From Pseudodesulfovibrio piezophilus C1TLV30 (GTDB lineage Bacteria > Desulfobacterota > Desulfovibrionia > Desulfovibrionales > Desulfovibrionaceae), in assembly GCF_000341895.1 (NCBI RefSeq), contig NC_020409.1:3062411-3094410 (forward strand): a stretch of 32,000 nucleotides of DNA, in the 5' to 3' direction. Numbering within the stretch: the stretch's first letter is position 1; each line of letters opens with the position of its first letter. The notes under the pieces are model-generated. The model had not been told where the DNA came from, did no database searches, and was given only the letters and a program-made list of their open reading frames with translations. This document shows, in pieces, positions 4,989-31,963 of the stretch. The translations under genes were made by a program, and so were the position numbers.

Positions 4989-5064
<76 letters not shown>

Positions 5065-7705: not shown

Positions 7706-8423
7706 TGGAATTCTCCTTCCGTTAAAGGTTCGGGGCAACGCCCCGGGGCCAAGCAGATCGGACTTTTCCCGTTATCCGGGAAAGACCTGCCTGTGGCGGT
7801 AACCCCGCCACGCATCACCAGCTAAGGGAAGAATGAATGCCCGTTTCCCATTGGAAGAAGATTCCGGAAGACCCAGTCAATAAGGGATGCTGCCCCGCAA
7901 GTGCTAGTCTTGCGGATTGGATGGCAGCCGTAGGGGAAGTACGGCAATGACAAGCGTAGATACTTGTCATTCCACCATCGGCGGGTGCTGCGTTACAGCC
8001 TGCGTGTTTGGATTTGGAAATGGCCGTTTGTTTGGAAAACGGTGCGTGGATCGTTGAAGCACAAGGCTTCGTCATGCGTCATCAGTTCGGACTTCGTCAC
8101 GAACTTATGACGCGCATGAATGCGTTTTACCTCCTTTGGGTTACGGAATTATCCGGTGGATATGCCCAACCATATGACGCCGCAAAACCCTCGCGCAAGG
8201 TCCGGCGGCAGGGTTTCTGCCCCTCCTGCCGATTTTGCCGCGAGCGTGACACAAGCAGTCGCCGGGGCAAGACCAAGCCCTGCGGGCGGACGCTTCGCGG
8301 TCCGGCCTTGCCCCGACGACTTTGCTTGCGTCGAGATTATCGCAGGCGACGGCGAGAGGGATGGCGGGTTTGACTCAGGCTCAAGGGATTTCCTTGGCAA
8401 AGCTTGAGGAATACTATTCAGTA

Positions 8424-14917: not shown

Positions 14918-14934
14918 GTTCCATATTCTGGAAC
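14918..14934 (+). promoter_or_regulatory. Inverted repeat upstream of the AddB-like gene (candidate operator)
   Basis: GTTCCA-tattc-TGGAAC has perfect 6-bp arms and ends 56 nt before the ATG at 14991. Pattern only. Confidence 0.2.
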
Positions 14935-14990: not shown

Positions 14991-17639
14991 ATGAAAATAC
15001 ATGTCGGATATCATTTTGACGGTGGGAGCTTCCCGGATGAGCTGGGAACAGATGTCGCTGCAGAGGGGGTAATCACGACCGGCCCGCTCGGCTTGATAAG
15101 TATCCTTGAAACCCGTTTGGGGCTGGTTGGGCCTAAGCCGGGGCAGCCGATTCGCATTGCCCGCTATTTGGCTGCAATGGAAACTCGTTGCAAAATGGGC
15201 GATCCCTTTTACAAAAAATCCTTTGAAGCAGACGGCTGGTCTTCAGCAAGGAGCTTGCTCGCCTTGCGGGATCAACTCCGATTGTCCGGATGGGACGGCA
15301 GCGATATGGGGGGCTCGGCGCGATTGGCCGACATGGTCGCTCTTGAGAAGGAATCGGACATTTTGCCGGGCCTTGCGGAGCGTATTGAAGAGATTCTCGG
15401 GGCTCTCGCCACGTATGGCATTTCAGGGATTTCAGAAATAGCTCTAAATGGGCATGAGCAAGTGGAATGGCCGTCCTGCTGGCGCAGGCTTTTTGCCGCA
15501 CTGGAAGCGGCGGATGTCAGCATCGACGTGGTTCAGCCCGAATATTCCTCGGGCACTTCCTCTGATCTGGAACTGTTACACCGGGCCCTTTGCGCTCAGG
15601 ATATTGGCGACGCAGCTTTTCAGGCGGACGGTTCGCTGATTTGCTTGAGCGCATCCACGGCCCTGGAGGCTGCCGATGCCTTGGGCGCGTGGCTTTCCGC
15701 CGAAGAAACCACGGAAGGAACCGTAGCCATTGTAGCAGAGTCCGTAACAGAAGTTCTCGATGCCGCCATGCGTCGATATGGTTTGCCTCGTCCTGGCGGC
15801 GGAGGTCGATCCCAATGGCGGGCGGCGTTGCAGTTGTTGCCCTTGGGGTTGGGCATTCATTGGGCTCCATTCGATCCGCAACGCTATCTGGAATTTTTGA
15901 CTGCCCCGATTTGTCCCTTGCATCCGGCCATGGCTGGTCGGCTTGTCCGCGCCCTTGAAAAGTCCCCTGGTCTGGGAGGGAAACAATGGCTTGGGGCCCT
16001 TGCCAAGTGTGAAGAGTGGGCGAAGAAGCGAGAAAATGCAGACGAGTTGCTGGAGGCTCTGCGTTTTTGGACCGAGGTCAAAAGGGTTTCGCCTCATGCC
16101 GGTTTGGATGTGGAGACGATCCGAACCGTCTGCCAACGTCTGAGCGACTGGTCCGCAAAGGGCGCAAGGTCCCGGGAAGGTGGGCTGATGGGCGCGGTTT
16201 CCGGCATGGCGTTGGAACTTGCCGAAGCCGCGAGGGCAACAGGCCGACAGGCCATCCCAAAATCGCAATTGGACCGGATGCTTGATTCGGTCATAGGCGG
16301 CGGTGCCGCAGTTGCAGACAGGGCCGAAGCTTCGCCGTGGGTTGTCTTGTCGCATCCGGGGCAGATCGGCGGGAACATCGATACAGTCATTTGGTGGAAT
16401 TTTTCCATGACGGGACTGCCGTCCGGGCGTTTGCCGTGGACCAATGGCGAAGTGGAAGCCCTAAGCAAGGCCGGTGTCCACATGGATGATGTTGATTTAC
16501 AACGGAACCTGGAGCTTTCATCCTGGCAACAGGTTGCGTGTAATGCCGGTAAGCGGCTGGTCCTGGTCATGCCGGAACAGGACGGAGGCGAACCGCTGGC
16601 CCCGCATCCCTTCTGGGAAAACATCGTTGCCGCCATGAATCTTTCCGAAGAGACGGATATCCCGGCCATGACGATATCGGCTTCACAGCTTCGTCGTGGT
16701 AACGGCGCACTGTTGGAAAGATCCATTTCCCTTGATCCCTTGCCGGAAAATGCGGCCCTGGAATTTCAGGAGGCATGGCAGGCTCCGAAAGACGTCATTG
16801 AAAGACGGAAAAAGGAATCGCCGTCGGGGATGTCGCAACTCATCAAGTGCCCTCTGGCCTGGGTGCTCAATCATGTGCTCAAGATCAGCGCCACCGGCAG
16901 CCCGACGCTTGCCGAGGGGAATCAACTCATCGGTTCGTTTTGCCATTCCATTGTCGAGGATCTGATCAACGAATCCCGCTGTTGGAAGCCGGAAGACGCT
17001 GTTGCCCGGGCAATGACCTTGTTTGAATCCCGGCTCAAGGAAATGGCGGCATCATATCTCCTGCCCGGCATGGAAACCAAACGGGAGCAACTCCGTTACG
17101 GGCTTCGCCGTGCGGTCTTCGATTTGTTCAACCGCATCGAGGGCGCAAAGCTCTCAATCGTCGAAAGCGAAAGGGAAGTTGAGCGGATTGACGCGGGAGG
17201 CCAGACATATCGGGGTTACGTCGATATCAGCCTTGAGGATACCAAGGGCAATCCCGTCGTCTGGGATATGAAGTGGACCAACAAGAGCAAGTACCGGCGT
17301 GAGGAATTGGAAAAGGGCATCGCCCTCCAACTGGCGGCCTATTGCTGGATGCTCGACAAGGACGACCTCCCTGCGTTCGGCGCCTATTACATGCTGGCCC
17401 AGGCTCAACTCATTTCCTCCTCGGCCCCATGGCTCCCTCCGGAAGACGTTGTTGATTCCGATTTGAAAGCCACATGGGAGATGGTGCGGGAACGATACGA
17501 CGCCATCATTGATCGCCTGATGACCGGGGATGTGGAGGCCGTCGCGCCCAGTGACGACGGCGAGGAGAAGGAGTTCGATTTCGGCACAGGCTGCTTCTTC
17601 TGTGATTACGCGATGGTTTGCGGGGTTGGATATGAGTAA
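14991..17639 (+). CDS. AddB/RexB-like PD-(D/E)XK nuclease subunit with a Cas4/AddB-type Fe-S cysteine set and no recognisable Walker A
   Basis: 882-aa ORF. Nuclease motif GYVDISLED...VVWDMKWT (D at 17223-17225; D-M-K at 17265-17273). Cysteines: C in LIKCPLAW (16848-16850) plus a C-terminal CFFCDYAMVC, i.e. C-x2-C-x5-C (17592-17621). I could not find a GxxGxGK[ST] motif by eye. Confidence 0.75.
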   Translation: MKIHVGYHFDGGSFPDELGTDVAAEGVITTGPLGLISILETRLGLVGPKPGQPIRIARYLAAMETRCKMGDPFYKKSFEADGWSSARSLLALRDQLRLSGWDGSDMGGSARLADMVALEKESDILPGLAERIEEILGALATYGISGISEIALNGHEQVEWPSCWRRLFAALEAADVSIDVVQPEYSSGTSSDLELLHRALCAQDIGDAAFQADGSLICLSASTALEAADALGAWLSAEETTEGTVAIVAESVTEVLDAAMRRYGLPRPGGGGRSQWRAALQLLPLGLGIHWAPFDPQRYLEFLTAPICPLHPAMAGRLVRALEKSPGLGGKQWLGALAKCEEWAKKRENADELLEALRFWTEVKRVSPHAGLDVETIRTVCQRLSDWSAKGARSREGGLMGAVSGMALELAEAARATGRQAIPKSQLDRMLDSVIGGGAAVADRAEASPWVVLSHPGQIGGNIDTVIWWNFSMTGLPSGRLPWTNGEVEALSKAGVHMDDVDLQRNLELSSWQQVACNAGKRLVLVMPEQDGGEPLAPHPFWENIVAAMNLSEETDIPAMTISASQLRRGNGALLERSISLDPLPENAALEFQEAWQAPKDVIERRKKESPSGMSQLIKCPLAWVLNHVLKISATGSPTLAEGNQLIGSFCHSIVEDLINESRCWKPEDAVARAMTLFESRLKEMAASYLLPGMETKREQLRYGLRRAVFDLFNRIEGAKLSIVESEREVERIDAGGQTYRGYVDISLEDTKGNPVVWDMKWTNKSKYRREELEKGIALQLAAYCWMLDKDDLPAFGAYYMLAQAQLISSSAPWLPPEDVVDSDLKATWEMVRERYDAIIDRLMTGDVEAVAPSDDGEEKEFDFGTGCFFCDYAMVCGVGYE

Positions 17640-20600
17640 GAAAATCGAATTGATAAGCGCGAGTGCCGGGTCCGGCAAGACATACTCCCTGACGGAAAGA
17701 TTCGTGAAAAGCCTTGATGAGGGCGTTCGGCCCGAAAGCGTCGTCGCCACCACCTTCACCAAGAAAGCGGCGCAGGAGATCGGCAGCCGATTCCGTTCGA
17801 AGCTGTTCGAACAGGGACGTGCGGAAGACGCGCAGCGCGTGTTTGGCGGCTATATAGGCACGGTCAACGCGGTCTGTGGAGCACTCCTCAAGGATTACGC
17901 TTTCGAGGTCGGCCAATCCCCGACGTTGGAAGTGGTGCCGGACGGCGAGGATGCCGCCCTCTTCCGCGTGGCTGCTGCCGATGCCGTCGGTCGAAAGGCC
18001 AGGCAGATCGTCCCGCTTGTGCGCTCCCTGGAAATCGAAAAGTGGGAAGACATCGTCAAGGGCATCATCGACAAGGCCAGGGCGAACGCCATTGACCGCA
18101 AGATGATGTTAGAAAGCGGAGAGCGTTCCTGGGAATTGCTCAGGGAGTTGATGCCCGATCCGATTTCCGAAACCGAAGGCAAAAAACTCGATACGGAAAT
18201 CGTGCGCGAATTGAAGCGGACGATCGGCGCACTTCCTTCCGATGGGGATACGAGCAAAGGCACCTTGGGAGCAAAAAAAGACCTTCAGGCCATCCATCGT
18301 ACGTTATCCCAAGAAAGCATTCCCAATTGGGCTACATGGGCCAAGCTGTCCAAAATCAAGCCCACATCAAAAAGTGCGCATGAGGTGGAAACGCTCCATG
18401 AACTGGCCGGACAGTTCCTTCAACATCCCAGGTTCCACAATGAGGTCCGCCAACTCATCACTCTGCTGTTTGACTGCGCCGCCGAAGCAGCGGGCTTGTA
18501 TCAACAGCACAAGCGGACCCTGGGGCTGATCGATTTCACGGATCAGGAAGCCTTGGCCCTGAAGATGGTCGAGGACGCCGCTGTGGCCGACCAACTGAAA
18601 GAGAGGTTGGACATGGTCATGGTCGACGAGTTCCAGGATACCAGTCCCATCCAGTTGGCCTTGTTCCTCAAGCTGTCCAAACTGGTGGACCGGTCGGTCT
18701 GGGTGGGCGACCAGAAACAGTCGATCTACGCCTTCCGTGGTTCGGACCCGGCATTGATGGATGCCGTCATCGATTCGCTTGGCGAGCCGGAGACGCTGCC
18801 GAACAGTTGGCGGTCACAGTCTGCCCTGGTCGATTTTGCCAGCGAATACTTCGCGGTGGCCTTCGGCCAGCTCGGCATCCCCGAAAAACGGGTGCGGCTG
18901 ACCTCCAAGGTGAGGTCGACCACGCCGAAGAGTCCGCATCTCAAATGCTGGCGGTTTGAATCGAAGAACAAGCCCGATGACAGGTTGTGCCTTGTTGGCG
19001 GCATCCAATCCATGCTCGCCGATACGGCGGCATATGCAATTCTCGACAAGACGACAAAAAAAGAGCGTACGCTCAAGGCCGGGGATATCGCAGTCCTCTG
19101 CATGACCAATGACAATTGCCGTGATGTCGCCGCCCTGCTGGAAGAAAACGGCATTCGTGCCGCTATTCCTCGAACAGGACTCATGAAGCGTCCAGAGATC
19201 GTCCTCGTTATGGCTGCCTATCGCTACCTTCTCAGTCCTGAAGACACGCTGGCTGTCGCTGAGCTGGCCAAGATATTTGGCCTGGAGGATTGGTTCTCGG
19301 TGGCCCTGCAAAACGGGATGGATGCAGTCAAGGATCTGCATCCGATGTTCGGACGTTTGGATGATGCTCGTCATGAGCTTGCCTCGTTGACGCCGTCCGA
19401 GGTGCTGGACCTGGCCATCGACCTTTCCGATGCGGGACGCATGGCCCTGGGGTGGGACAACCCTGCCCTCAGACAGGCCAATCTGGACGCCCTCAGGGGG
19501 CACGCCCTAGGGTATGAGTCCACCTGTAAGGCGCGGCGATGCGCCTGCACTCCCGCCGGTCTCATCAATTATTTGCATCAACTGAAAGGGGACGATGCGG
19601 ACTCCCAGGCTGTCGGCGTGGGCGACGATACCGTCCAGGTCCTGACCTATCACCGGTCCAAGGGGCTCGAATGGCCCGTGGTCATCCTGACGGATCTTGA
19701 GTCCGGCGAAAAGGGGAAGCCGTTCGGGCTGAGCGTGCAATCGTCCGACGCCCCGTTTGACCTGGATGATCCCCTGGCTGGCCGGTGGCTTCGCTACTGG
19801 CCCTGGCCCTTTGGTCTGCAAAAGAAAATCGAGGGATTCTCCGATGTGGTTGAAGAAAGCGATGCGGGCCGGACCGCATTCGAGCGGGAGCGCCGGGAGC
19901 GCCTGCGTTTGTTGTACGTCGGAATGACGCGCGCCAGGGACTACATGATTCTCTCAGCCAGAAAGGAAGGCAAAGGGGCACCGACAGCTTGGCTTGACTC
20001 CTATACGGATGCTGGCGGCAATCGGATCGTGTCCTTGCCCAACGTGGCTGGAGTTGCGGAGATTACCGTGGGCGGAAAGACGTTCCCCATTGAGACCGTA
20101 TGCCTCACGCCGATTGGGGAAGTGACACAGGCCGTTGCCGGTCAAAACCATGCCCCAGTTTTGCCGGAGAAGGTGAAGGCCCATCCCCCGGCCCGTTTCG
20201 TGCCGAGCAGCGATACCATCGACGAGGACAATATCTCTGTGGAGTTCTTCGAACTGGGAGCGCCCCTGCTGATCAAGGCCACGGATTCCCGCGTGGATTT
20301 GGGAAATGCGGTGCATGCCTTCCTGGCAGTGGCTTCACCGGAGCAGGACGAGGCGACCCTCAGGACGCGGGCGGAACGGATCGTGACCGGCTTGGGTTTG
20401 AAAGACCTCACTGCCGACATGCTGCTCGAAATGCACCAACGATTGCGGACCTTCATCACAACGACAATCGATCCGGCAGGCACGGGCGAAATCCTCACGG
20501 AGTGGCCGATCCATCTCAAGCGAGGATTGCAAAAAGGCAGCGGCTGGATCGACATGCTGTGCCGCCAACCGGACGGCGACGTCATTATCGACCATAAAAC

Positions 20601-20766
20601 GTCATTGGGCGGCAAAGATGTGCTGGAGAAAAAGGCAATCGGCTATGCTGGACAGTTGGCCACGTATGGGGAAGCACTTCAAAAGGCGACCGGGATATCT
20701 GGACGGGGGATGTGGTTGCATTTCGCGTTGGCGGGGATGATGGCTAGGGTGAATATTCAAGGATAA
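17632..20766 (+). CDS. AddA/RecB-like UvrD-family SF1A helicase with a C-terminal RecB-type nuclease domain
   Basis: I prefer the start at ATG 17632 (MSKKIELISASAGSGKTY), which overlaps the upstream stop as ATGAGTAA. Motifs: AGSGKT 17665-17682, DEFQD 18625-18639, VGDQKQSIYAFRGS, WRSQ, TYHRSKGLEWPVV, YVGMTRARD. Nuclease: GNAVHAFL ... WIDMLCRQPDGDVIIDHKTS (D 20551-20553; D-H-K 20590-20598) ... YAGQLATY. Confidence 0.85.
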   Translation: MSKKIELISASAGSGKTYSLTERFVKSLDEGVRPESVVATTFTKKAAQEIGSRFRSKLFEQGRAEDAQRVFGGYIGTVNAVCGALLKDYAFEVGQSPTLEVVPDGEDAALFRVAAADAVGRKARQIVPLVRSLEIEKWEDIVKGIIDKARANAIDRKMMLESGERSWELLRELMPDPISETEGKKLDTEIVRELKRTIGALPSDGDTSKGTLGAKKDLQAIHRTLSQESIPNWATWAKLSKIKPTSKSAHEVETLHELAGQFLQHPRFHNEVRQLITLLFDCAAEAAGLYQQHKRTLGLIDFTDQEALALKMVEDAAVADQLKERLDMVMVDEFQDTSPIQLALFLKLSKLVDRSVWVGDQKQSIYAFRGSDPALMDAVIDSLGEPETLPNSWRSQSALVDFASEYFAVAFGQLGIPEKRVRLTSKVRSTTPKSPHLKCWRFESKNKPDDRLCLVGGIQSMLADTAAYAILDKTTKKERTLKAGDIAVLCMTNDNCRDVAALLEENGIRAAIPRTGLMKRPEIVLVMAAYRYLLSPEDTLAVAELAKIFGLEDWFSVALQNGMDAVKDLHPMFGRLDDARHELASLTPSEVLDLAIDLSDAGRMALGWDNPALRQANLDALRGHALGYESTCKARRCACTPAGLINYLHQLKGDDADSQAVGVGDDTVQVLTYHRSKGLEWPVVILTDLESGEKGKPFGLSVQSSDAPFDLDDPLAGRWLRYWPWPFGLQKKIEGFSDVVEESDAGRTAFERERRERLRLLYVGMTRARDYMILSARKEGKGAPTAWLDSYTDAGGNRIVSLPNVAGVAEITVGGKTFPIETVCLTPIGEVTQAVAGQNHAPVLPEKVKAHPPARFVPSSDTIDEDNISVEFFELGAPLLIKATDSRVDLGNAVHAFLAVASPEQDEATLRTRAERIVTGLGLKDLTADMLLEMHQRLRTFITTTIDPAGTGEILTEWPIHLKRGLQKGSGWIDMLCRQPDGDVIIDHKTSLGGKDVLEKKAIGYAGQLATYGEALQKATGISGRGMWLHFALAGMMARVNIQG

Positions 20767-20797
20767 TGACTCCCCCTTCATGGGAGAAGGATACGAC

Positions 20798-22312
20798 ATG
20801 GCTGACCAAATGAATTTGTTTAAGGCATACTCCGGTGGGAACCGAGAGGATCTCGAGCATATGGATCGATTGGAAAACAATGTGACGCGCGCCTTTGTTA
20901 TTACGTTGCAATACATTCATGCCGATGAGCCGGATGTGTTTCGGCGTATCCTCGGGGAGATAACTGGGGATAGGGGGAAACGGTTTGAACCAAAGCAAGT
21001 ATGGTTCGATTTGCAGAGTGGGACCCAGGAACTAGTGGCCGCTGCGCAAAAAGATGGGGTCGAGAAAATAATTTTGGCAATTTCCTCACGGAAGGAGGAA
21101 ACTCCGAGGTTTTCCTGTGTAACCCAGTTCGATCGTTTGTTGAAGGACTATGAGGATGTGCCCGACAATGACCAGAAAAAATTTCTAAAGTCTTTAGCCA
21201 AGTGGCAGAAGAAAGGAGAAAGCGAAAAAGAGGTGCGTATTTCCCTGAGGGGCACTGAGTATTCTTTTTCTCCGCACGAAGCTGAAAATGTCTACCGACT
21301 CGTACACGATAATATCCCTGATGGATGGATTGTGGCCCCAGGACGCTATGCGATCCTGATAGAATCGAAAATTGGGAGCGGTCGTATCTGTGAGGAGCAG
21401 CTTTTTCGTCATGCGACTGGGAACAAGGGTTTTAAGCTGTCCGCTCAAGATGTGAAAAATGATGGCAGTGTACAAATCGTCTGTGTCACTTGGGGAAAAG
21501 TCTGCGACGCCTTGGTTGGGGCGAGCAAAGAGCTTAAGGGAATGTCCTTGAAGATAACGGAACAATTTTTGGAGTATATGGAAATGAGCGGGGAAAAACT
21601 GAATTTTGAATTTTTCTTGAGAGGGGCTTACGATGAAAATGGGATGCGTAATCAGTTCCCATTATTGGTTGATAAGATGCAACAAAAGCTCAAGGAAAGG
21701 GATATCCCGCTCGAAGCAGAGAATCGCCCTTTGACAGGTGTCTGGCAGCGATTCAAATATGGGGCGGAGGGAGACATGTTCTATACCTTGCGGGCCTCAG
21801 AAGGCGGGGTAGAGATCTCACTGACTGCTCATAACTCGCTGAAAAAAAAGTTGTATTTAAACAAGGCATGGGCAGGTATTCTCTGGGATATGTGTAGTGG
21901 CTCGGGGAAATGGCTCAGGCACCGTTACCAAGTGATGCTTCATGACTATCGACTGGTGGATAGGCAAAAGGGACAGATGAAAGGAGAAAGCCAAGAGTTG
22001 TTTAATTACCGGTTCACCCTGGGAACGGTGGGAACAAAGGGAGACTTGGATTCCTTGGTCGAGATTGGCAAACAGCTTGTCAAGCTTAAGGACGTAAAGC
22101 AGTTGGATATGACGTTTAAAGTTGGAGTGATCGATGGGAGCAAGATCAAACATGGAGAAGAGGGGACTTTGAGGGCTGAAAATGCCAAGCTGCTCTCTGA
22201 CCCAGAAACCCTTCTGGAATCATTCTGCGATTTTGTAGAAAATACATTTCCTGTATATATGGATGTGCTGAAGCACAAGAGCCAACGTAAGGGCGCCACA
22301 AAGGAAGGATAG
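20798..22312 (+). CDS. Hypothetical protein with an N-terminal PD-(D/E)XK-like motif and a ~300-aa C-terminal region of unknown function
   Basis: 504 aa from ATG 20798, which has GGGAGAAGGA ending 6 nt upstream (track start is 20780). Motif succession: LENNVTRAF ... IPDGWIVAPGRYAILIESKIG (D 21320-21322; E-S-K 21362-21370) ... EQLFRH. G+C is clearly lower than in the two upstream genes. No family recognised for the rest. Confidence 0.6.
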   Translation: MADQMNLFKAYSGGNREDLEHMDRLENNVTRAFVITLQYIHADEPDVFRRILGEITGDRGKRFEPKQVWFDLQSGTQELVAAAQKDGVEKIILAISSRKEETPRFSCVTQFDRLLKDYEDVPDNDQKKFLKSLAKWQKKGESEKEVRISLRGTEYSFSPHEAENVYRLVHDNIPDGWIVAPGRYAILIESKIGSGRICEEQLFRHATGNKGFKLSAQDVKNDGSVQIVCVTWGKVCDALVGASKELKGMSLKITEQFLEYMEMSGEKLNFEFFLRGAYDENGMRNQFPLLVDKMQQKLKERDIPLEAENRPLTGVWQRFKYGAEGDMFYTLRASEGGVEISLTAHNSLKKKLYLNKAWAGILWDMCSGSGKWLRHRYQVMLHDYRLVDRQKGQMKGESQELFNYRFTLGTVGTKGDLDSLVEIGKQLVKLKDVKQLDMTFKVGVIDGSKIKHGEEGTLRAENAKLLSDPETLLESFCDFVENTFPVYMDVLKHKSQRKGATKEG

Positions 22313-22447: not shown

Positions 22448-22491
22448 AAAAAAATATAAAGTCCACACATCTGCTTGATGGGTGGACTTTT
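22448..22491. terminator. Hairpin terminator between convergent genes (better T tract on the minus strand)
   Basis: 8-bp stem aagtccac / gtggactt (22459-22466 / 22482-22489) with a 15-nt loop. A7 at 22448-22454 gives T7 after the hairpin on the minus strand. Only TT-TT follows on the plus strand. Confidence 0.5.
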
Positions 22492-22534: not shown

Positions 22535-22894
22535 CTAATCCCATCTCAACATCTTCTCAAAGGTGTTAGGTGCACGTTCCTTGAGCTTCATTCGGTAAAT
22601 ATATTCCCAATAATACTTCGGATCAATCGGCGAGAGCAGGGGTATATCATACCGCAGTCCAGTGCGTGGGTCTAACATGTTGTAGTAATATGAATCGTTC
22701 TTTTCAACTTGGCTAGCAAGTTCCTCGTCCATTTGCAATTTTTGCGAGGCGAACTGGAATGCGTTCGTATTGTTTGCCATTGCCACCAGAACAACATCTT
22801 TGTCATTTTGGAGGTCTTCAGATACAAGTCGCAGGTTCATCCCGTCTTCTTTGACAGCCTCCAAGGCAGCCTGTTTTTCAGTGATGGCAATCAT
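22535..22894 (-). CDS. DUF4116-repeat protein
   Basis: 119 aa from ATG 22894, which has AGGAGA 6 nt upstream (track start is 22948). AALEAVKEDGMNLRLVSEDLQNDKDVVLVAMANNTNAFQFASQKLQMDEEL fits the DUF4116 repeat pattern as I remember it. Confidence 0.6.
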   Translation of the reverse strand: MIAITEKQAALEAVKEDGMNLRLVSEDLQNDKDVVLVAMANNTNAFQFASQKLQMDEELASQVEKNDSYYYNMLDPRTGLRYDIPLLSPIDPKYYWEYIYRMKLKERAPNTFEKMLRWD

Positions 22895-23172
22895 CGCGTT
22901 TCTCCTTTTGAATTGATTTGCGCTGATGATGCCTGAATCTTGTTCCACAACTTGGAACGTTGTTGCCTGAATATTGTCGGCTTCAAGGTCGATTTATTTG
23001 TGTCGCAGAGGCCCAGCGGCTATTGGCCGTATTTCCCCATCATTGAGCGTATCTCCTCCCCCACTGCCTGCTGGGGGCAGTCTATGGACTCCATCGTGCC
23101 GCCTGTGAAAGAGCGGGAGTAGGTATGATCGTGTCTGTTGTTTGGGGTATCGCCTGTTTGTCTTTCGTTGTA

Positions 23173-23832
23173 TCAACTGGTCAAATATACTCCGTATTCT
23201 CGATACAACCGATAAACAGTGTTAAAAATAATGTCTGATTTTCTTTCGCGAACCAAATCATTTCTGAAAATACAATGCAATTCTGGGGCAAATCCATCCA
23301 CTCTTATAAGCGGGAAGAGCATGTTGAAGTAAGCCTCGTCCAAACAAGTGCAGTCAGCGAGCAGCACAGTAAAGCAGCATTGGTTGGGGGGAATGACGAA
23401 ATTAGCTGATTTTATTTTCAATCCATATCTTAATGCAACAGCAAATTCCATGATTGCTGCGGCCATTGGATTGAAATGCCTGCTTTTAATCTCAAAAACA
23501 ACAGCTTTGTCTTCCGTGTTTTCATTGTAGGCGATTATATCAAGTTGTTTTCTTGGGAATCCTTTGGCTTTCCTTTTGTCCCATTCGATAGTTGGATTTG
23601 CCTCAGCCTTGATTTCGGGAAGGGTGTTAAAACCAGCAATAATGGCATTCTCAAAGGATTTTGAGAAAAAGGTCCTGTCCCCTGGATTTGTTTGCGTTCG
23701 TGCTTCCATCTGGTTTGAAATGGTTTGGAAAAACAGTTGAGCTGCTGAGTGATATCTATCCCTGCGCGAAATTGTTGAACAGACCTTTGAAACGGAGAGA
23801 AGGCCGTCTATGTATTTACTTGTGCCAGTCAC
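23173..23832 (-). CDS. Hypothetical 219-aa protein with a PD-(D/E)XK-like motif, translationally coupled to the WYL regulator
   Basis: GTG start (complement of 23830-23832) lies directly after the TAA of the upstream gene (23833-23835). AGGAGA (23838-23843) is 5 nt upstream. Motif: FENAIIAGF ... QLDIIAYNENTEDKAVVFEIKS (D 23539-23541; E-I-K 23485-23493). Low G+C. Confidence 0.6.
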   Translation of the reverse strand: MTGTSKYIDGLLSVSKVCSTISRRDRYHSAAQLFFQTISNQMEARTQTNPGDRTFFSKSFENAIIAGFNTLPEIKAEANPTIEWDKRKAKGFPRKQLDIIAYNENTEDKAVVFEIKSRHFNPMAAAIMEFAVALRYGLKIKSANFVIPPNQCCFTVLLADCTCLDEAYFNMLFPLIRVDGFAPELHCIFRNDLVRERKSDIIFNTVYRLYREYGVYLTS

Positions 23833-24840
23833 TTATATCTCCTGTCCGCTATATATGTTGGTTGTCCTTTCAAGCTCATTTAGTACCTTCCCTCGCAAGT
23901 GGGAAGGCATCAGCACTTCAATATTTGCCCCAAAGCTCAACACCCAAGACAGTAATTCCGTTTCGCTCTGTGCGGTGAACTCAAGTTCGTATCGCCCATC
24001 ATCCAGGTCCTTAACGACCTGGTCCGAACTCCAGCGGCGTTCTTTTACATAACGCCCGGCTTCTGGAGTGAGGCGTACCTTGACTCGGAACGATTCGCAT
24101 TCCGGAAACCCGAAATAGTGCGGTTTCTCCTGCTGCTGAATGGAATGTTTTTTTCTGACAGGTTCGGCGGCCGTGAAACGGTGGATAGGCAGATGCATTT
24201 CGTAAATAGGCTCAGCTTCTTTGGCCCGTATGTCCACCTTCCAACCGGTGACGTACAGGGCTTCCCTGTAAGACTTAATTTTGAGGGGTGCGAAGTAGTG
24301 CAGCTTCTCCTCCTTTTGCCCCAACGCCTTGTATTTGATCTCGCACACGTCCTTGCCCGCGATGGCATTGAGGATCGTCGTGATGATCGCTTCCTGGGGG
24401 GTGTAGTCGATACTTCCTTTTAGTATGGCCCCGGCCAAGGATTCGAAGGCTTGCGCCCTGTTGTCGAGAGCCGGGAGTAAGGCCACCGTTTTGTGGATGG
24501 TCTCGTCGACCTCTTTCGACAGACCCTGCGGCAGCAGATGGCGGACCATTTCCTTGCAGAGCAGCAAATGGCTGATTTCGTCTTCAGACAAAGCCACTTT
24601 GGGTCTGTTTCTCGGCGTCTGGATTTGATACCAAGTCCGCTTGCCTTCCTTGCCTTTCTCCACTCGAACCGAGTAGCTGCGATCAATATCCTCCATCATG
24701 CGTATAATGGTCTGTTTGGAACAATCCAATTCCCTGGCAAGGTCGATAAGATAATGCCGCTTGCCAGTGTACATGAGCTGGCAGAAGAGCGTGACGGCCT
24801 TCTGAGTCGGCTTGGCGTGTTGGTTTTTCTTGGGCGGCAC
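23833..24840 (-). CDS. WYL-domain transcriptional regulator (HTH, WYL and C-terminal extension; BrxR/CapW-like architecture)
   Basis: HTH: YLIDLARELDCSKQTIIRMMEDID. WYL-like core: KLHYFAPLKIKSYREALYVTGWKV. C-terminal module: RWSSDQVVKDLDDGRYELEFTAQSETELLSWVLSFGANIEVLMPSHLR. I prefer GTG 24840, which has AAGGAGA (24846-24852) 5 nt upstream. The track start TTG 24897 has no SD. Confidence 0.75.
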   Translation of the reverse strand: MPPKKNQHAKPTQKAVTLFCQLMYTGKRHYLIDLARELDCSKQTIIRMMEDIDRSYSVRVEKGKEGKRTWYQIQTPRNRPKVALSEDEISHLLLCKEMVRHLLPQGLSKEVDETIHKTVALLPALDNRAQAFESLAGAILKGSIDYTPQEAIITTILNAIAGKDVCEIKYKALGQKEEKLHYFAPLKIKSYREALYVTGWKVDIRAKEAEPIYEMHLPIHRFTAAEPVRKKHSIQQQEKPHYFGFPECESFRVKVRLTPEAGRYVKERRWSSDQVVKDLDDGRYELEFTAQSETELLSWVLSFGANIEVLMPSHLRGKVLNELERTTNIYSGQEI

Positions 24841-24873
24841 ACGGGTCTCCTTGTGGCGAAATCGGTCGGTCAA

Positions 24874-24947
24874 AGGCAGCACTGCCTCTGGATGCAATCT
24901 TTGATACCAAATAAACCAATATGAAGGAAACCCATAATATTATCGGG
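24874..24947 (-). promoter_or_regulatory. Candidate promoter/operator region of the WYL operon (two palindromes)
   Basis: AGGCAG-ca-CTGCCT at 24874-24887 and CCCATAATATTATCGGG at 24931-47 (core ATAATATTAT is a perfect palindrome). Both lie in the 134-bp gap between the AAA+ gene stop and the preferred WYL start. Pattern only. Confidence 0.3.
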
Positions 24948-24974: not shown

Positions 24975-27185
24975 CTAAAACCCGATGGCGCGCTGTCTGC
25001 CCGTTTCGTTTTTAATTGCGGATTCCCTTGCCAGGGCTTGGACAAGATCTGCGTGGCGGATTTTGTTCTTCGGGTAGAACGCGAATCGGTCTCGTATGAT
25101 CTTGAAGTCTCCAGGTGTCAGGTTTTTTAGATGGCAAATGGCCTGGAGTTCATTGTCGGTCACCTGTCGGCTTACGAGAGGAGCAAGCATCTTATCGTAA
25201 AAGGAAGCCACGCCCTTCTTGCCCAGAAAATCGAAGAAAATTTTGTGATTGAATCTTCGCAGTGATGCCGAATCCAGTTCGTCCATACGGTTAGTGGTGC
25301 AGATGAGCAGCCCCCGGAAGTGTTCCATCTGGGTCAGGAATTCGTTGACCATGGACGTTTCCCATGATCGAACCGCTTTGTCCCGGCTGAAGAGCAGGCT
25401 GTCCGCTTCATCGATGACCAATACGGCCCGTTGCTTTTCGGCTTGCCGGAATGCCTTGGCTATTTGTTGCTCGCTTTGTCCTACCCACGCGCTCAGGAGG
25501 TCGCTCGTGCGCTTCACTATCAGCTCCCGTTTGAGATGCCGGGATAGATAACGGGACAGTTCCGTTTTTCCAGTTCCCGGAGGGCCGTAGAAAAGCAGGT
25601 TCATGTTGACGCGCAATTCGTCTGAATCCCTTTTGAGGTAGGCGTTGAATGCGTCCAGTTGCTCCAGGAGTGCCGACATGTCTGCATCCAGGTTAAGACC
25701 TTCCAGCGAATAATCGTTTTCAATGACGTCATCCCGCTTGATGGATCTGTCGCCGGATATCAACTGCTGGCTGGCTATGAGGGATCGCTCCACCGCTTGG
25801 AAGAATGGCCTTTTCTTTCGACCGGCTATTTCCTTGGCCTTTTTGATGGCCATATCAATGGAACCTGCGGACAGCGGATAGCGGACGGCAAATGTTTTCA
25901 TTTGATCCCTGGTGAGGAGTCCCAACACCTTGTTCTTGGCAGCAACCCGCTGCCAGATGTTGATGCGCTCGTCACGGCCGAGTTTCTGGAACTTCACGCT
26001 GTAGGCAAAACGCCGCATGACCGAATCCGGAATGCCGAAAGTGTCGTTCGTTATCCATATTGTCCTGGTGCCGGGACGCTCAAGGAATTCGTTGAGCCAT
26101 CCTTTATCCTGCTTGTCGCCCGAGAAGATGTAAGCGAATTCGGTGTTGAGCAGGTTGTCCGCTTCGTCGACGATCACCAACCCTTCCTGTCCATTCCCCG
26201 TCATATTGAGACAAGCTTCGAGAGCTTTTTTGCGTGCTGAGGAATCGCTGTTGTCAGTTGTCCTGACATTATAGGCATTTTGCCCGATTTTATGAGCTGC
26301 CGTCGCGGCGAAGCTGCTTTTACCCGCGCCGGGCTCGCCGTACAAAAGGATATGCGTCGGAGCCGTGTTGTCGGCTTTCAAAAGGGCGAGGATGTGTTCG
26401 GCCACGCCTTCTTCAAGGGGAAAGTACTCTAGGGGAAGGAGTTCTTTCTTCGCCTGCTTGTAGAAAAGGTCCTCCATGTTCTCGAGCGGGGTGGTGAAAA
26501 TTGATTCGACGACCCGGTCAACCGTCAGCGATCCGTATTTGTCTACCAACTCAAGTCTGGAGATTTTCCCGGAAATGGCTTTGTTGAAATCCTGTTGCGA
26601 GATATTCAGCATGGTGGAGAAAACTCCTGATTTCCCCTGCTCTCGACAGCTCAAGTGGGAATCAAAGTATTCATTGAGTATATCCCAATTCTCGAGCAGA
26701 TGAACAGCGAGGATTATAGCCACCTCCGTTTCATTGAGTCGAAAGAATGTTTGCAGAATCTTGCATCCTTTATCGAGGTTGGACTCGTGCGTACCGGGGA
26801 AGTCGTGGAGGCGGTTGCTCAATTGCTCATGCAGAATTGATGCGAGTGGATGAGATAGGGCTACCCCGCATTTCTTTATCAGAATTTCAATATTGTCTGC
26901 GAGGATGCTGTGATCTTCCAAGTCGTCGAAGTGTTGAAGACGTTCCTCCAATTCTCCGGGGGTGAGCTTTTGGGGGCCGGTAACAGTGATCAGTTCCTTG
27001 CATTCGGCCAAAAATTCAGGAGCCCTGTCATTCAGGGCTTTGAGAGAAAACCTGATTGCGTTTTCGTCAAGCGGGATTCCCTTGCTGAGCAACCGCATAA
27101 ACCAGGTGATGCTGGTTTCAAAAACATAGATATCGTCGTCGCTCAAAAATTGGTCAGGAATACGTTCGATGGAGCCAAAGCCCAT
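24975..27185 (-). CDS. Tandem AAA+ ATPase (two P-loop modules, the second of classical SpoVK/Cdc48 type) with a ~270-aa N-terminal domain of unknown function
   Basis: 736 aa; GGAGG lies 5 nt before ATG 27185. Module 1: LLYGEPGAGKSS ... LVIVDEADNLL. Module 2: LLFYGPPGTGKTELS ... VLVIDEADSLL ... ICTTNRMDELDSASLRRF (a second-region-of-homology-like segment). Confidence 0.8.
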   Translation of the reverse strand: MGFGSIERIPDQFLSDDDIYVFETSITWFMRLLSKGIPLDENAIRFSLKALNDRAPEFLAECKELITVTGPQKLTPGELEERLQHFDDLEDHSILADNIEILIKKCGVALSHPLASILHEQLSNRLHDFPGTHESNLDKGCKILQTFFRLNETEVAIILAVHLLENWDILNEYFDSHLSCREQGKSGVFSTMLNISQQDFNKAISGKISRLELVDKYGSLTVDRVVESIFTTPLENMEDLFYKQAKKELLPLEYFPLEEGVAEHILALLKADNTAPTHILLYGEPGAGKSSFAATAAHKIGQNAYNVRTTDNSDSSARKKALEACLNMTGNGQEGLVIVDEADNLLNTEFAYIFSGDKQDKGWLNEFLERPGTRTIWITNDTFGIPDSVMRRFAYSVKFQKLGRDERINIWQRVAAKNKVLGLLTRDQMKTFAVRYPLSAGSIDMAIKKAKEIAGRKKRPFFQAVERSLIASQQLISGDRSIKRDDVIENDYSLEGLNLDADMSALLEQLDAFNAYLKRDSDELRVNMNLLFYGPPGTGKTELSRYLSRHLKRELIVKRTSDLLSAWVGQSEQQIAKAFRQAEKQRAVLVIDEADSLLFSRDKAVRSWETSMVNEFLTQMEHFRGLLICTTNRMDELDSASLRRFNHKIFFDFLGKKGVASFYDKMLAPLVSRQVTDNELQAICHLKNLTPGDFKIIRDRFAFYPKNKIRHADLVQALARESAIKNETGRQRAIGF

Positions 27186-27281
27186 AAATCCCTCCTTGGA
27201 TCAAGATTGCGTGTGCTGGTCTGAGAGTGTAAATGTCGGTCGTTCCAAAATACGGAACAATCTGTTTAGAAAGTATGGCTA

Positions 27282-28460
27282 TCAATCGGGTGGGGAATTT
27301 ATGTCTTTGAGCCAAGCCGAAACGATGTCCCATGAGAGGGCATTGGGTTCCCTGTTTTGGTGGAGCTTGAACTCTTGCACCACAAAGCCGTCGTAGTCTC
27401 TGCCGAGGGCGATTGTGCCGCGTTCGGGCCACAAAACTTTGTAAAACGTGAGTGCTCCGGAAGAAGCTTCGTTGAGATAGCTGAATACGCAGTGGTTCAG
27501 TTCCTCTCCTTCTTCATAAAGCTCATGGACGGTTGTGATGGGGACAATCGTGTCAGTGCCAGGCGCTTTAGGCGCAGCAAGGTCAGGACTCTCTTTTTGT
27601 TTTATGTATGCAGCCAATTTTTGTTCATCAGTGACTTCGTTTGCCCATTTTGAATGAAGGCTCAGTAACTGCTTGTAATCCGAACATCGCTTCAGGGCCT
27701 GCCATGGATCTTGTTTTTCCATGAATTCGGCAATCCGCAGACATTCATAGAATTCTTCGCGTATTCGTTTATAGAGAGAATTGAATGTCTCCTGCTCCCG
27801 AATGAGCTTTTTGAAAAATGCGCAACTGAGCAGGTCTTCGTTCATCTCGGAACGGGACAATGCCTTAAGATTAATTGTCCCACAGTGAAGGAGGTGACTT
27901 GTGATCGCCGTGTCCCCCGTGACTTTCTTGAGGGCAAGGAATTCGTTGAAGTCATAGTCTACCATCAGGATTCGTTTGATGAATTTTACCGAAAGCGATG
28001 GGTTGTACGGATGTAGCTGTTTTACGATCTGTTTCTGTTTGAGCCGAATCAATTCACGACATTCTATATACGACATGCTGCCCGTGCTCATCTGCTCGGC
28101 GATGAGCCAAAGCAGGATGGGATTGGAATGGGCGAGATCAATGGCGTAGGACGTGAAGCGCATCAAGCGAAGGATGTTTAGTTGGTGCCATCTGAAAGGT
28201 TTTGCCAGTTCTCGTATTTCTTTGGGGATTCTGTCGAGGAACCGTTGGCGAACCGGACACGGCTTTCGGAATCTCGGTTGAGTGAAGAGTAGGCGCAGTC
28301 CAGGAAGCCGGTCTACCGGCGTCCATTTTTGGTCAATCCAACAGTAGCAACCAAAATCTGCATTCCACGGCGTCAGGCAGAACGCTGCGCCATCTGCTTT
28401 GAAGTAGAGGCAATCTTGGTCCTTTCGGTGATGTATAAGATCTCGGTCTCGTATTTTCAT
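27282..28460 (-). CDS. PcfJ-like protein
   Basis: 392 aa; GGAGG lies 8 nt before ATG 28460. The C-terminal segment VHELYEEGEELNHCVFSYLNEASSGALTFYKVLWPERGTIAL resembles the conserved EG..hxHCV..Y core of the PcfJ family as I recall it. No search was run. Confidence 0.5.
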   Translation of the reverse strand: MKIRDRDLIHHRKDQDCLYFKADGAAFCLTPWNADFGCYCWIDQKWTPVDRLPGLRLLFTQPRFRKPCPVRQRFLDRIPKEIRELAKPFRWHQLNILRLMRFTSYAIDLAHSNPILLWLIAEQMSTGSMSYIECRELIRLKQKQIVKQLHPYNPSLSVKFIKRILMVDYDFNEFLALKKVTGDTAITSHLLHCGTINLKALSRSEMNEDLLSCAFFKKLIREQETFNSLYKRIREEFYECLRIAEFMEKQDPWQALKRCSDYKQLLSLHSKWANEVTDEQKLAAYIKQKESPDLAAPKAPGTDTIVPITTVHELYEEGEELNHCVFSYLNEASSGALTFYKVLWPERGTIALGRDYDGFVVQEFKLHQNREPNALSWDIVSAWLKDINSPPD

Positions 28461-28796
28461 GAATTATTCCTCCCTGCGTGGAGAAATTATGTCAGAGGAA
28501 TGTTCCAGAAAGCGGAATGTAGGGTCGCTCTTTTGAATTAGGGTGATGCTCTTTCAAAGTGATCCACGGGCCATCCCCTAAATCCCCATCGAAGGCGTAG
28601 TCCTGCCAGCAGGTGCTTTGATGGCCGCCAAGGCCGTGTCCGTTATGTGTCCGCTTTTTCCACGACGCCCTGTAAAAAGCGACGACATTCCGCGCTTTCT
28701 GCACGTTCTGTTCAAAAGTGGCTTGAAGTCGCTTGGCGGCGATAAGTCCTTTGTTTTTAAATTGTTAAGTGGTTAGTCTGGTTCAGTGCCAACAAA

Positions 28797-28842
28797 AATG
28801 GCATTCAAGAGGTCGTGGGTTCGATTCCCTCCAGCTCCACCA
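28797..28842 (+). repeat. attR: 46-nt copy of the tRNA-Ala 3' part (no 5' half, so not a gene)
   Basis: Identical to 5019-5064. The sequence upstream (gttcagtgccaacaaa) has no acceptor or D-arm counterpart. Confidence 0.9.
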
Positions 28843-31152: not shown

Positions 31153-31764
31153 TCAGTCTTGAAGGTCAGGCTCGGTTTCTTTGCTGTACAATTCTTCGAG
31201 TGATTTGGTGAAGTGGCGGACGATGGCGTTTTTGTCCAGTTGACTGCGGTTCTCTTCGGGCAGGAGGAAAAAACTCAGCGAAATGCCGACCAGGGAGGCC
31301 AATCCCAAAAAAGCCCTTGTGTCCCTGTCATCCCCTTTCATGAAACGGGCGCGGCGTTCTTTTTGCCGTAAGAAGTATTCGGACACCACATCGGAAACTT
31401 CTGGGTCCATGGCAGAGAGAAGAAGCAGTCGGAGTTTTTCTTTTCTCGGATTGTCATCCTCGGCAAGCAGCTCAGTCATGACCTCTCGAGCCAGGTTCTG
31501 TTCCCCGTGTGATGAGAGGACACTGTGCCCCATGGAGTGTACCACTTCATTGAAGAGTTTCTTCTTTGAACCGAAGTAGCGGTTGATCAGTGTGATATTG
31601 ACCCCGGCTGCTGCGGCAATGCTCCGCGTGCCGACGTTCTTGTAGATATCCTGTGAAAACAGTGTCCGTGCAGCGATGAGAATGCGTTTCTTTGTCTCTG
31701 CTGCGTTTCGCGGGTGGTGTTCAGGAGGCTTCTGGCTACTTGATGTGCCGTTCCGGACTGACAT
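31153..31764 (-). CDS. TetR/AcrR-family transcriptional regulator
   Basis: 203 aa. The N-terminal HTH is KKRILIAARTLFSQDIYKNVGTRSIAAAAGVNITLINRYFGSKKKLF. GAAGGAA lies upstream of ATG 31764. Confidence 0.85.
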   Translation of the reverse strand: MSVRNGTSSSQKPPEHHPRNAAETKKRILIAARTLFSQDIYKNVGTRSIAAAAGVNITLINRYFGSKKKLFNEVVHSMGHSVLSSHGEQNLAREVMTELLAEDDNPRKEKLRLLLLSAMDPEVSDVVSEYFLRQKERRARFMKGDDRDTRAFLGLASLVGISLSFFLLPEENRSQLDKNAIVRHFTKSLEELYSKETEPDLQD

Positions 31765-31819: not shown

Positions 31820-31839
31820 ATGTAGTCAACTGATTACAT
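31820..31839. promoter_or_regulatory. Candidate TetR operator (imperfect palindrome)
   Basis: ATGTAGTCA-ac-TGATTACAT has 9-bp arms with one mismatch, 56 nt upstream of the TetR ATG. On the minus strand it overlaps a TTGACT -35-like hexamer. Confidence 0.4.
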
Positions 31840-31840
31840 A

Positions 31841-31910
31841 CGCCAATGCGGGCCAATGCGGGCCAATGCGGGCCAATGCGGGCCAATGCGGGCCAATGCG
31901 GGCCAATGTG
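31841..31910. repeat. Tandem repeat, 7 x 10 bp (GGCCAATGCG)
   Basis: cgccaatgcg, then five perfect ggccaatgcg units, then ggccaatgtg. It directly abuts the palindrome at 31820-31839. Confidence 0.95.
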
Positions 31911-31963
31911 GTTGACGTTGCTCGTGGTAGAGTGGTCAAAGAGTGTAGAAAATATTATACAAG

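Follow-up and report, generated by a model that had tools for sequence, protein, structure and literature searches.

Background

WYL-domain regulators of the BrxR family repress defence loci by way of inverted repeats, and they co-localise with many defence systems (PMC9122601). Here we describe a locus of Pseudodesulfovibrio piezophilus C1TLV30 where a regulator of the WYL/WCX kind adjoins the gene for a double AAA+ ATPase, which in turn adjoins a gene for a PcfJ-like protein. The last two lie at the attR end of an island inserted at a tRNA-Ala gene, within a stretch of 32 kilobases (kb) that was analysed as a whole and is called the window below. The first-pass annotation of this DNA had presented the PcfJ-like gene and the ATPase gene as a two-gene unit that matched no named system. 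As argued below, the ATPase has a different constant partner, the WYL regulator, and the PcfJ-like gene is best read as a facultative addition to that pair.

The resemblance to BrxR and CapW, the regulators of BREX and CBASS systems, comprises a WYL plus a WCX domain, neighbours typical of defence islands, a palindrome in the promoter region, and a regulator gene placed in or next to the unit that it apparently controls. There are also differences. Here the regulator is constantly paired with the double AAA+ ATPase rather than with BREX, CBASS or a restriction system, and the palindrome, as a putative binding site, is repeated before four separate units.

The ATPase has two kinds of described relatives. 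Like Cdc48, p97 and VAT, it has tandem classical AAA modules with the second region of homology, arginine fingers and a pore loop in the second module. Unlike them, it has an N-terminal domain that is helical and winged-helix-like in the model rather than a double-psi barrel, and its first module has no canonical aromatic pore loop. Among defence ATPases the nearest is IetA (IteA) of the IetAS (Gao_Iet) system. That likeness lies in the second AAA module and the linker preceding it; the protein described here has an additional AAA module and a 262-residue N-terminal domain.

The PcfJ family takes its name from a gene of the Enterococcus plasmid pCF10. We know of no member whose function has been established. 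PcfJ of pCF10, the PcfJ-like proteins of phages and the protein described here share the C-terminal motif E-G-x-x-M/L-x-H-C-V, and the phage models have a fold like that of our protein. In contrast to pCF10 PcfJ, however, our protein is a member of a full-length family encoded on chromosomes, in which a beta domain at the N-terminus is followed by a helical middle domain, and its gene lies on a non-conjugative island.

Results and discussion

What is conserved beside the ATPase

The ATPase family has 349 matches and is conserved over its full length, N-terminal domain included. Its genomic contexts were collected from homologues on metagenome contigs and from 80 loci of species-representative genomes; their neighbours were clustered, and the counts below refer to about 86 non-redundant loci (individual loci are cited by handles such as L001). 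A WYL/WCX gene is the commonest neighbour, present in 27 of these loci. Above about 36% identity to the ATPase it is nearly always there when the contig leaves enough flank: immediately downstream in the same orientation, or upstream and divergent. Relatives at 62-72% identity (L001, L013, L176 and L177) keep the ATPase and the WYL gene and have no PcfJ gene. The same pair is kept in L012 (67% identity), whose contig ends 467 nucleotides (nt) upstream of the ATPase in a stretch free of PcfJ coding sequence. The conserved core is the ATPase with the WYL regulator, not the PcfJ-like gene with the ATPase.

That the neighbouring gene encodes a WYL regulator had already been proposed in the first-pass annotation, and the profile searches agree. 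The Pfam WCX model matches at E=5e-20 (72 bits against a cut-off of 23.9), and two PADLOC WYL models match at E=8e-25 and 1e-16. No sequence match to the protein was found in the PDB, where WYL structures have been solved. Its start codon is uncertain: the open reading frame as listed begins with TTG, and homologues are about 332 amino acids long.

What surrounds the pair varies from locus to locus and includes type I restriction-modification genes, GmrSD, DUF2779, Mrr, PLD together with SNF2, and AddAB-like genes. The WYL gene keeps company with defence genes, with ProA in the island described here and with type I restriction-modification, GmrSD and Mrr in related loci. AddA-like and AddB-like genes both occur near the pair in L012, L014 and L015, and one of the two was detected near it in L061, L079 and L044. 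In L014 (7508-9558) and the matching part of L015, from Desulfovibrio sp. UBA4079 and a Syntrophaceae genome, ADP-ribosylglycohydrolase and gamma-glutamyl cyclotransferase-like genes precede the ATPase and the AddAB-like genes lie further upstream.

A palindrome before four units

Comparison of the sequences upstream of the ATPase in relatives without PcfJ brought out a 17-base-pair (bp) palindrome, GTTCC-N7-GGAAC. In the window it lies inside the 96 bp that separate the PcfJ-like gene from the ATPase gene (27186-27281). Those 96 bp had been taken for plain operon spacing, which can no longer be maintained, for they hold a conserved element that is kept before the ATPase even where PcfJ is missing. 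In the close subfamily, an exact TTCC-N7-GGAA stands no more than 160 nt before the ATPase gene in 12 of the 20 distinct loci, where shuffled upstream regions would give 0.045; with up to one mismatch the count is 16 against 1.1. The taxa represented are Desulfovibrio, Syntrophaceae, Desulfobacterales, Thermodesulfobacteriota and Acidobacteriota. In loci with a divergent WYL gene, the palindrome falls within the intergenic region that it shares with the ATPase gene. Since the same palindrome precedes the ATPase in such distant taxa, whatever reads the site must travel with the module. And since it is present in the absence of PcfJ, the ATPase-WYL unit has a control element of its own, independent of PcfJ.

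Exact palindromes number four in the window, against 1.03 expected from shuffles. All are in the island, 57-72 nt before the starts of the ATPase gene, the PcfJ-like gene, a DUF4116 gene and the first gene of an AddAB-like operon (Table 1). Copies with one mismatch do not exceed background and are dispersed over coding sequence. In P. portus (L006) the palindromes before PcfJ, the ATPase and DUF4116 are at the same positions, while the intergenic sequence around them has diverged. We regard the four units as a probable regulon. As the PcfJ-like gene has its own copy of the site, it is probably co-regulated with the ATPase, which would make the connection between the two a functional link and not that of a simple operon.

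Outside this clade the nearest PcfJ relative, P0122 (36% identity, on the 4.7-kb contig L178), also has exact palindromes. One (395-409) is 63 nt before the PcfJ-like start and the other (1697-1711) is 74 nt before the next gene, which encodes a membrane-like protein of 194 amino acids. Neither the ATPase nor the WYL gene is on this contig, and the sites suggest control in trans. Other PcfJ loci linked to WYL genes do not share the palindrome.

A terminator function for the palindrome was considered and rejected: it has no T-tract, and it is present where there is no upstream gene to terminate. Scans for sigma-70 promoters and for terminators were uninformative.

In PcfJ-less L176 (161-175 and 240-254) and L177 (209-223 and 304-318) two copies of the palindrome stand 80-95 nt apart upstream of the ATPase, one of the two in L177 being degenerate. 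Such paired sites could be what remains after the loss of a PcfJ cassette from between them.

The PcfJ-like gene as a probable accessory

The two genes of the original proposal do exist as described, 96 bp apart on the minus strand, each with a strong Shine-Dalgarno sequence (GGGAGG before the PcfJ-like gene and AAGGAGG before the ATPase gene). If they formed an obligate two-gene system, with one product as effector or sensor, the other as motor, and the WYL protein merely a nearby regulator, they should keep together. In P. portus they do, the PcfJ proteins being 86% and the ATPases 94% identical to those of the window. Moreover, the two genes are adjacent in four lineages: the window with P. 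portus, L004, L102 and L061.

A search of the ATPase loci with a profile built from 121 full-length PcfJ relatives argues against an obligate pair. PcfJ-like genes are present in only four or five lineages of the approximately 86 ATPase loci, namely the window and P. portus (L006-L011), L004/L005, L061 and, at a distance of 7 kb, L092. From the other side, 80 metagenome loci and two plasmid loci of PcfJ-like genes reduce to 69 non-redundant contexts, and this ATPase family is found in one of these (L102). The relatives at 62-72% identity that keep WYL and lack PcfJ, and the palindrome that precedes the ATPase in loci without PcfJ, point the same way. So does L177 (ATPase 62% identical), whose contig begins inside the equivalent of the attR sequence. 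There, 188 nt of island-end homology (73% identity to window positions 28635-28822) are followed at once by the ATPase promoter region, and PcfJ is missing. The contigs of L012, L176 and L177 each end at a point 300-470 nt before the ATPase gene, and at that place L012 and L176 have no similarity to the attR sequence. With L177 a presence/absence polymorphism of PcfJ at the island end is visible, and we consider an obligate pair quite unlikely. The idea of a two-gene unit survives only in part: the adjacency is non-random, recurs in four lineages and comes with a shared palindrome in the window, but the constant partner is the WYL gene.

Could PcfJ then be unrelated cargo that happens to sit beside the ATPase-WYL pair in a hotspot of gene shuffling? 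Its neighbourhoods are indeed very heterogeneous, and its presence or absence varies among close relatives. Two observations speak against chance. PcfJ and the ATPase share the palindrome in two species, and the nearest PcfJ relative has it too. In addition, the PcfJ-like family accounts for roughly one protein cluster in a million, which puts four adjacencies in about 90 loci far above chance (the count is made without correction for phylogeny). The PcfJ proteins of the four linked lineages are only 20-39% identical to one another, and every one of them is closer to other members of the family. Such non-sister proteins beside the same ATPase suggest repeated recruitment rather than one inherited pair. 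Mere cargo seems to us very improbable.

The arrangement differs between lineages as well. In Pseudodesulfovibrio PcfJ is upstream with its own palindrome, and elsewhere it is downstream of the ATPase in an operon. The order in L004 is a divergent WYL gene, the ATPase, a gene for 119 amino acids (with no relatives in other loci) and PcfJ. In L061 a divergent WYL gene is followed by the ATPase and PcfJ; beyond them lie an AddA-like gene in convergent orientation and another large open reading frame of about 1100 amino acids. In L102 the start of PcfJ follows the stop codon of the ATPase gene by 2 nt. The next, overlapping gene of L102 (2988-3950) encodes a Porphyromonas-type peptidyl-arginine deiminase or agmatine deiminase (PF04371, E=6e-31). 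Taken together, these sequence comparisons make a facultative, separately promoted accessory of the ATPase-WYL module the best reading of the PcfJ-like gene.

No single conserved partner of PcfJ emerged among 113 immediate neighbours. Two further kinds of AAA neighbour were set aside: single-AAA proteins of about 365 residues, which trace to a single sediment lineage, show no more than generic relatedness, and an 815-residue 'AAA' neighbour is an ordinary Lon.

The ATPase

The protein, labelled 'AAA family ATPase' at NCBI, matches the AAA model PF00004 in two stretches (E=6e-40). It is composed of an N-terminal domain (residues 1-262), a first AAA module (D1, about 270-480), a classical AAA module (D2, about 520-700) and a conserved C-terminal I-G-F. 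Its motifs were analysed in an alignment of 27 sequences, the window protein and 26 full-length homologues. Invariant in D1 and D2, respectively, are Walker A (G283..K289 and G534..K540), Walker B (D340 E341 and D592 E593), sensor-1 (N380 and N632) and the arginine-finger pairs (R391/R392 and R643/R644). With all of these in each module the protein is a tandem, type II classical AAA ATPase. D2 has a pore loop of the form Trp/Tyr-Val-Gly with an invariant G569, and D1 has no equivalent motif. Three points of the first-pass annotation, namely two complete P-loop modules, a classical second module with arginine fingers and an N-terminal domain without a recognised family, are all confirmed, the last by the absence of any Pfam match in the first 262 or so residues.

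The closest solved relatives are VAT, Cdc48 and p97 (E about 1e-39). The protein is not a Cdc48 orthologue, as TIGR01243 gives 70.7 bits against a cut-off of 802 and the N-terminal domain is no double-psi barrel. Membership in IetAS was rejected too. The IetA model of PADLOC matches residues 475-695 (E=1.8e-34), and the NCBIfam model NF042959 (IteA) matches residues 476-682 with 104 bits, its equivalog cut-off being 510; no IetS-like protease was found among the neighbouring open reading frames scanned.

The N-terminal domain was modelled with a predicted local distance difference test (pLDDT) of 87; in the model it is helical, and residues 186-222 form a helix-helix-helix-hairpin element. Foldseek against the PDB gives weak matches (E about 1), mostly to winged-helix regulators, and we treat the winged-helix-like element as a lead, not a finding. 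A different reading is that the ATPase is not an effector but a signal-transducing partner of the regulator, one that strips or remodels the WYL repressor, or other DNA-bound proteins, at the palindromes. The ATPase-WYL pair would then be a regulatory cassette for island cargo such as PcfJ, DUF4116 and the AddAB-like genes. The tight conservation of the pair amid varying flanking genes would fit, and so would the winged-helix-like element and the sigma-54 activators that adjoin the ATPase in another clade (see below). However, the characterised WYL regulators BrxR and CapW need no ATPase (PMC9122601), the winged-helix matches are not significant, and tandem classical AAA modules with a canonical pore loop are typical of unfoldases, though silent on the substrate. 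We think such a cassette unlikely.

One detail concerns the C-terminus, which in this family has the form I/L/V-G-F (window 24975-24983). G735 and F736 are invariant in the 27 sequences, sometimes with a short tail after them. ClpX docks on ClpP by an I-G-F tripeptide, and the C-terminal I/L/V-G-F may be a docking motif for a partner ring.

The PcfJ-like protein

The 392-residue product (NCBI label 'PcfJ domain-containing protein') matches PF14284 over residues 263-369 with 40.5 bits (gathering cut-off 25; E=3.1e-10), in accord with the resemblance first noticed at its C-terminus. It carries YEEGEELNHCVFSY, and its C-terminal motif reads EELNHCVFSY. H323 and C324 are invariant or nearly so in alignments of the family. 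Full-length proteins of this kind have about 390-420 residues, of which the Pfam model spans only the last 150 or so, and they form 1614 clusters at 50% identity (E<=0.001), or 634 at E<=1e-10.

The AlphaFold model (mean pLDDT 90.8) shows a small beta domain at the N-terminus, then a middle domain of helices and, at the C-terminus, a domain of the order beta-alpha-alpha-beta-beta-beta-alpha. This last domain contains the conserved residues E317, H323, C324, Y340, R347, T349 and N369. Against the BFVD the model finds 21 predicted phage proteins at E<=0.001, among them proteins of large myoviruses, and nearly all of those that bear a name are called PcfJ-like. By sequence, this subfamily has no match in phage records and only 2 among 72,556 plasmids. 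The statement that PcfJ is confined to conjugative plasmids has therefore to be given up, given the 1614 clusters, the two plasmids and the many structural relatives in phages.

Foldseek found no PDB relative of the model at E<=0.001, which leaves the suggestion of a Cys/His-motif protein without structural support. Searching PDB sequences with the family profile produced no meaningful match. Two enzymatic readings were tried and discarded. GNAT-like matches of the C-terminal domain have a probability of 0.2-0.3 in Foldseek and are unreliable, and a PD-(D/E)xK nuclease built on E317, P345-E346 and E362-x-K364 fails at the lysine position, which is unconserved in the family alignment. Functional work on PcfJ was not found in the literature.

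What the locus may do

Several suggestions can be made regarding the function of this locus. The one that we prefer, and hold to be slightly more probable than its contrary, is a WYL-controlled and probably inducible regulon with a Cdc48-like unfoldase at its core and PcfJ as a facultative accessory. A dimer of the WYL protein would bind the palindromes and, in the manner of BrxR and CapW, keep the four units repressed until a signal of infection or DNA damage reaches its WYL domain. Derepression would supply the ATPase, presumably a hexameric, Cdc48-like motor that threads proteins by means of the D2 pore loops. Its N-terminal domain, and PcfJ where present, may determine which protein is threaded. 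DNA would be the substrate of the AddAB-like enzyme, which would be induced together with the ATPase. If so, the most likely role is an inducible defence against phage or other invading DNA.

A number of points weigh against this proposal. Some concern the regulator: the Pfam WYL model gives 21.2 bits, slightly under its cut-off of 21.8, and no helix-turn-helix domain was matched by Pfam. The idea of repression comes by analogy, and the protein may repress or activate. In addition, the winged-helix-like N-terminal domain of the ATPase, which travels with the module, could be the palindrome binder instead. Others concern the breadth of the association. Distant ATPase homologues (28-35% identity) are mostly without WYL, and in L038, L042, L058 and L065 (Lentisphaerota and Kiritimatiellia, about 31-36% identity) the ATPase adjoins a sigma-54 enhancer-binding protein of about 500 residues instead, which makes the ATPase-WYL pair clade-specific. 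Four close loci (L016, L018, L021 and L027) have no palindrome. For PcfJ, the single ATPase-bearing locus among the 69 contexts counts on the same side, as does the heterogeneity of its neighbours, of which the commonest, a WYL regulator, occurs in 9 of the 69 loci. Finally, the literature searched contained no experiments tying these genes to phage defence.

The island and its other genes

The island measures 23.8 kb. Both ends bear the 3' part of tRNA-Ala(GGC) as a perfect 46-bp direct repeat, the two copies being spaced 23,778 bp apart, and these flanking repeats, with a tyrosine integrase gene beside the intact tRNA gene, mark it as a tRNA-integrated genomic island. The window coordinates are collected in Table 1.

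Table 1. Features of the island and proposed control sites, in window positions
Feature	Position	Strand	Remarks
attL, 3' part of tRNA-Ala(GGC)	5019..5064	+	tRNA gene 4989-5064
Tyrosine integrase gene adjoining the intact tRNA-Ala	5142-6329	-	Phage_integrase E=1.4e-22
Anti-phage protein ProA, 1968 amino acids	8424..14330	-	NCBIfam NF058533 2165 bits, cut-off 1500; PADLOC PDC-S37
Palindrome before AddB-like gene	14919..14933		72 nt before start
Operon: AddB-like PD-(D/E)XK protein (882 amino acids), AddA-like UvrD helicase-nuclease (1078), 510-amino-acid protein	14991..22312	+	
DUF4116 protein	22535..22948 (likely ATG at 22894)	-	Pfam E=6e-17
Palindrome before DUF4116	22943..22957		about 63 nt before likely ATG at 22894
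219-amino-acid protein abutting the WYL gene	23173..23832	-	no family match
WYL/WCX transcription regulator	23833..24897	-	next gene downstream of ATPase
Double AAA+ ATPase, 736 amino acids, ATG start (CCH50075)	24975..27185	-	PF00004
Palindrome before ATPase	27242..27258 (core 27243-27257)		72 nt before ATG; proposed operator
PcfJ-like protein, 392 amino acids, ATG start (CCH50076 / WP_015416118)	27282..28460	-	PF14284
Palindrome before PcfJ	28502..28518 (core 28503-28517)		57 nt before start
attR, perfect 46-bp copy of the 3' part of tRNA-Ala, island end	28797..28842	+	337 bp from PcfJ start

The island is of the defence type and is marked as such by ProA, a protein with DUF4011, superfamily 1 helicase, MTES_1575 nuclease and DUF3320 domains that scores above its equivalog cut-off; PDC-S37 is a candidate system in PADLOC. 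The first-pass annotation had inferred a defence-type island without conjugation genes, and both parts are upheld, the first by ProA, the att repeats and the integrase, the second by the absence of a relaxase, a coupling protein or type IV secretion genes among the island's open reading frames scanned. Scans with PADLOC, NCBIfam and Pfam assigned no named defence system to the PcfJ-like, 219-residue, 510-residue and AddB-like proteins. The AddAB-like operon may itself be a candidate system. The DUF4116 gene travels with the module in the window, L006 and L176.

Another potential role for these genes would be in the service of the mobile element itself, as an anti-defence or establishment module of the island. 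It would suit a family that occurs on plasmids, integrative conjugative elements and phages and owes its name to a pCF10 gene; as the BFVD matches show, phages commonly have the wider PcfJ fold, and the genes sit at the island terminus beside attR. Yet the island's open reading frames, as scanned, include no transfer genes, the two plasmids and the empty phage search set this subfamily apart from that picture, and the genes that are neighbouring or co-regulated (ProA, the AddAB-like nuclease and WYL) are of the defence type. Such a service seems improbable to us.

Three further observations were made. A second integrase-like gene lies within the island at 6746-7738. Between the convergent genes for the 510-residue and DUF4116 proteins there is an inverted repeat (22458-22490) with 14-nt arms that are 93% complementary, probably a bidirectional terminator. 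Outside the island, about 8 tandem copies of the 10-bp unit GCCAATGCGG occupy 31832-31921, just upstream of a TetR-family gene on the minus strand (31153-31764).

Conclusion

A description of the ATPase-WYL pair or of the GTTCC-N7-GGAAC palindrome was not found in the literature. With the pair and the palindrome occurring in several phyla, they make a candidate for a new defence or stress module. The proposed regulon with four promoters is unusual in that an unfoldase, a helicase-nuclease and two uncharacterised genes appear to be linked by a single short palindrome.

PcfJ (PF14284) is a large family without assigned function, distributed across chromosomal islands, plasmids and many phages. 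The locus described here puts one of its members under a recognisable control element, beside a motor protein and in a defence island. A bolder suggestion, which we offer as speculation and regard as rather unlikely, is that the ATPase-WYL pair with an exchangeable PcfJ forms a new inducible anti-phage system. A single WYL repressor would sit over the four promoters by way of the palindrome that they share, and infection would release the unfoldase and the AddAB-like nuclease. Proteins of the phage or other invader would be dismantled, the target being chosen by the N-terminal domain or by PcfJ, with a possible hand-over to ClpP by way of the I-G-F terminus. If this is true, the locus would provide the first functional handle on the PcfJ family, widespread as it is in phages, plasmids and islands.

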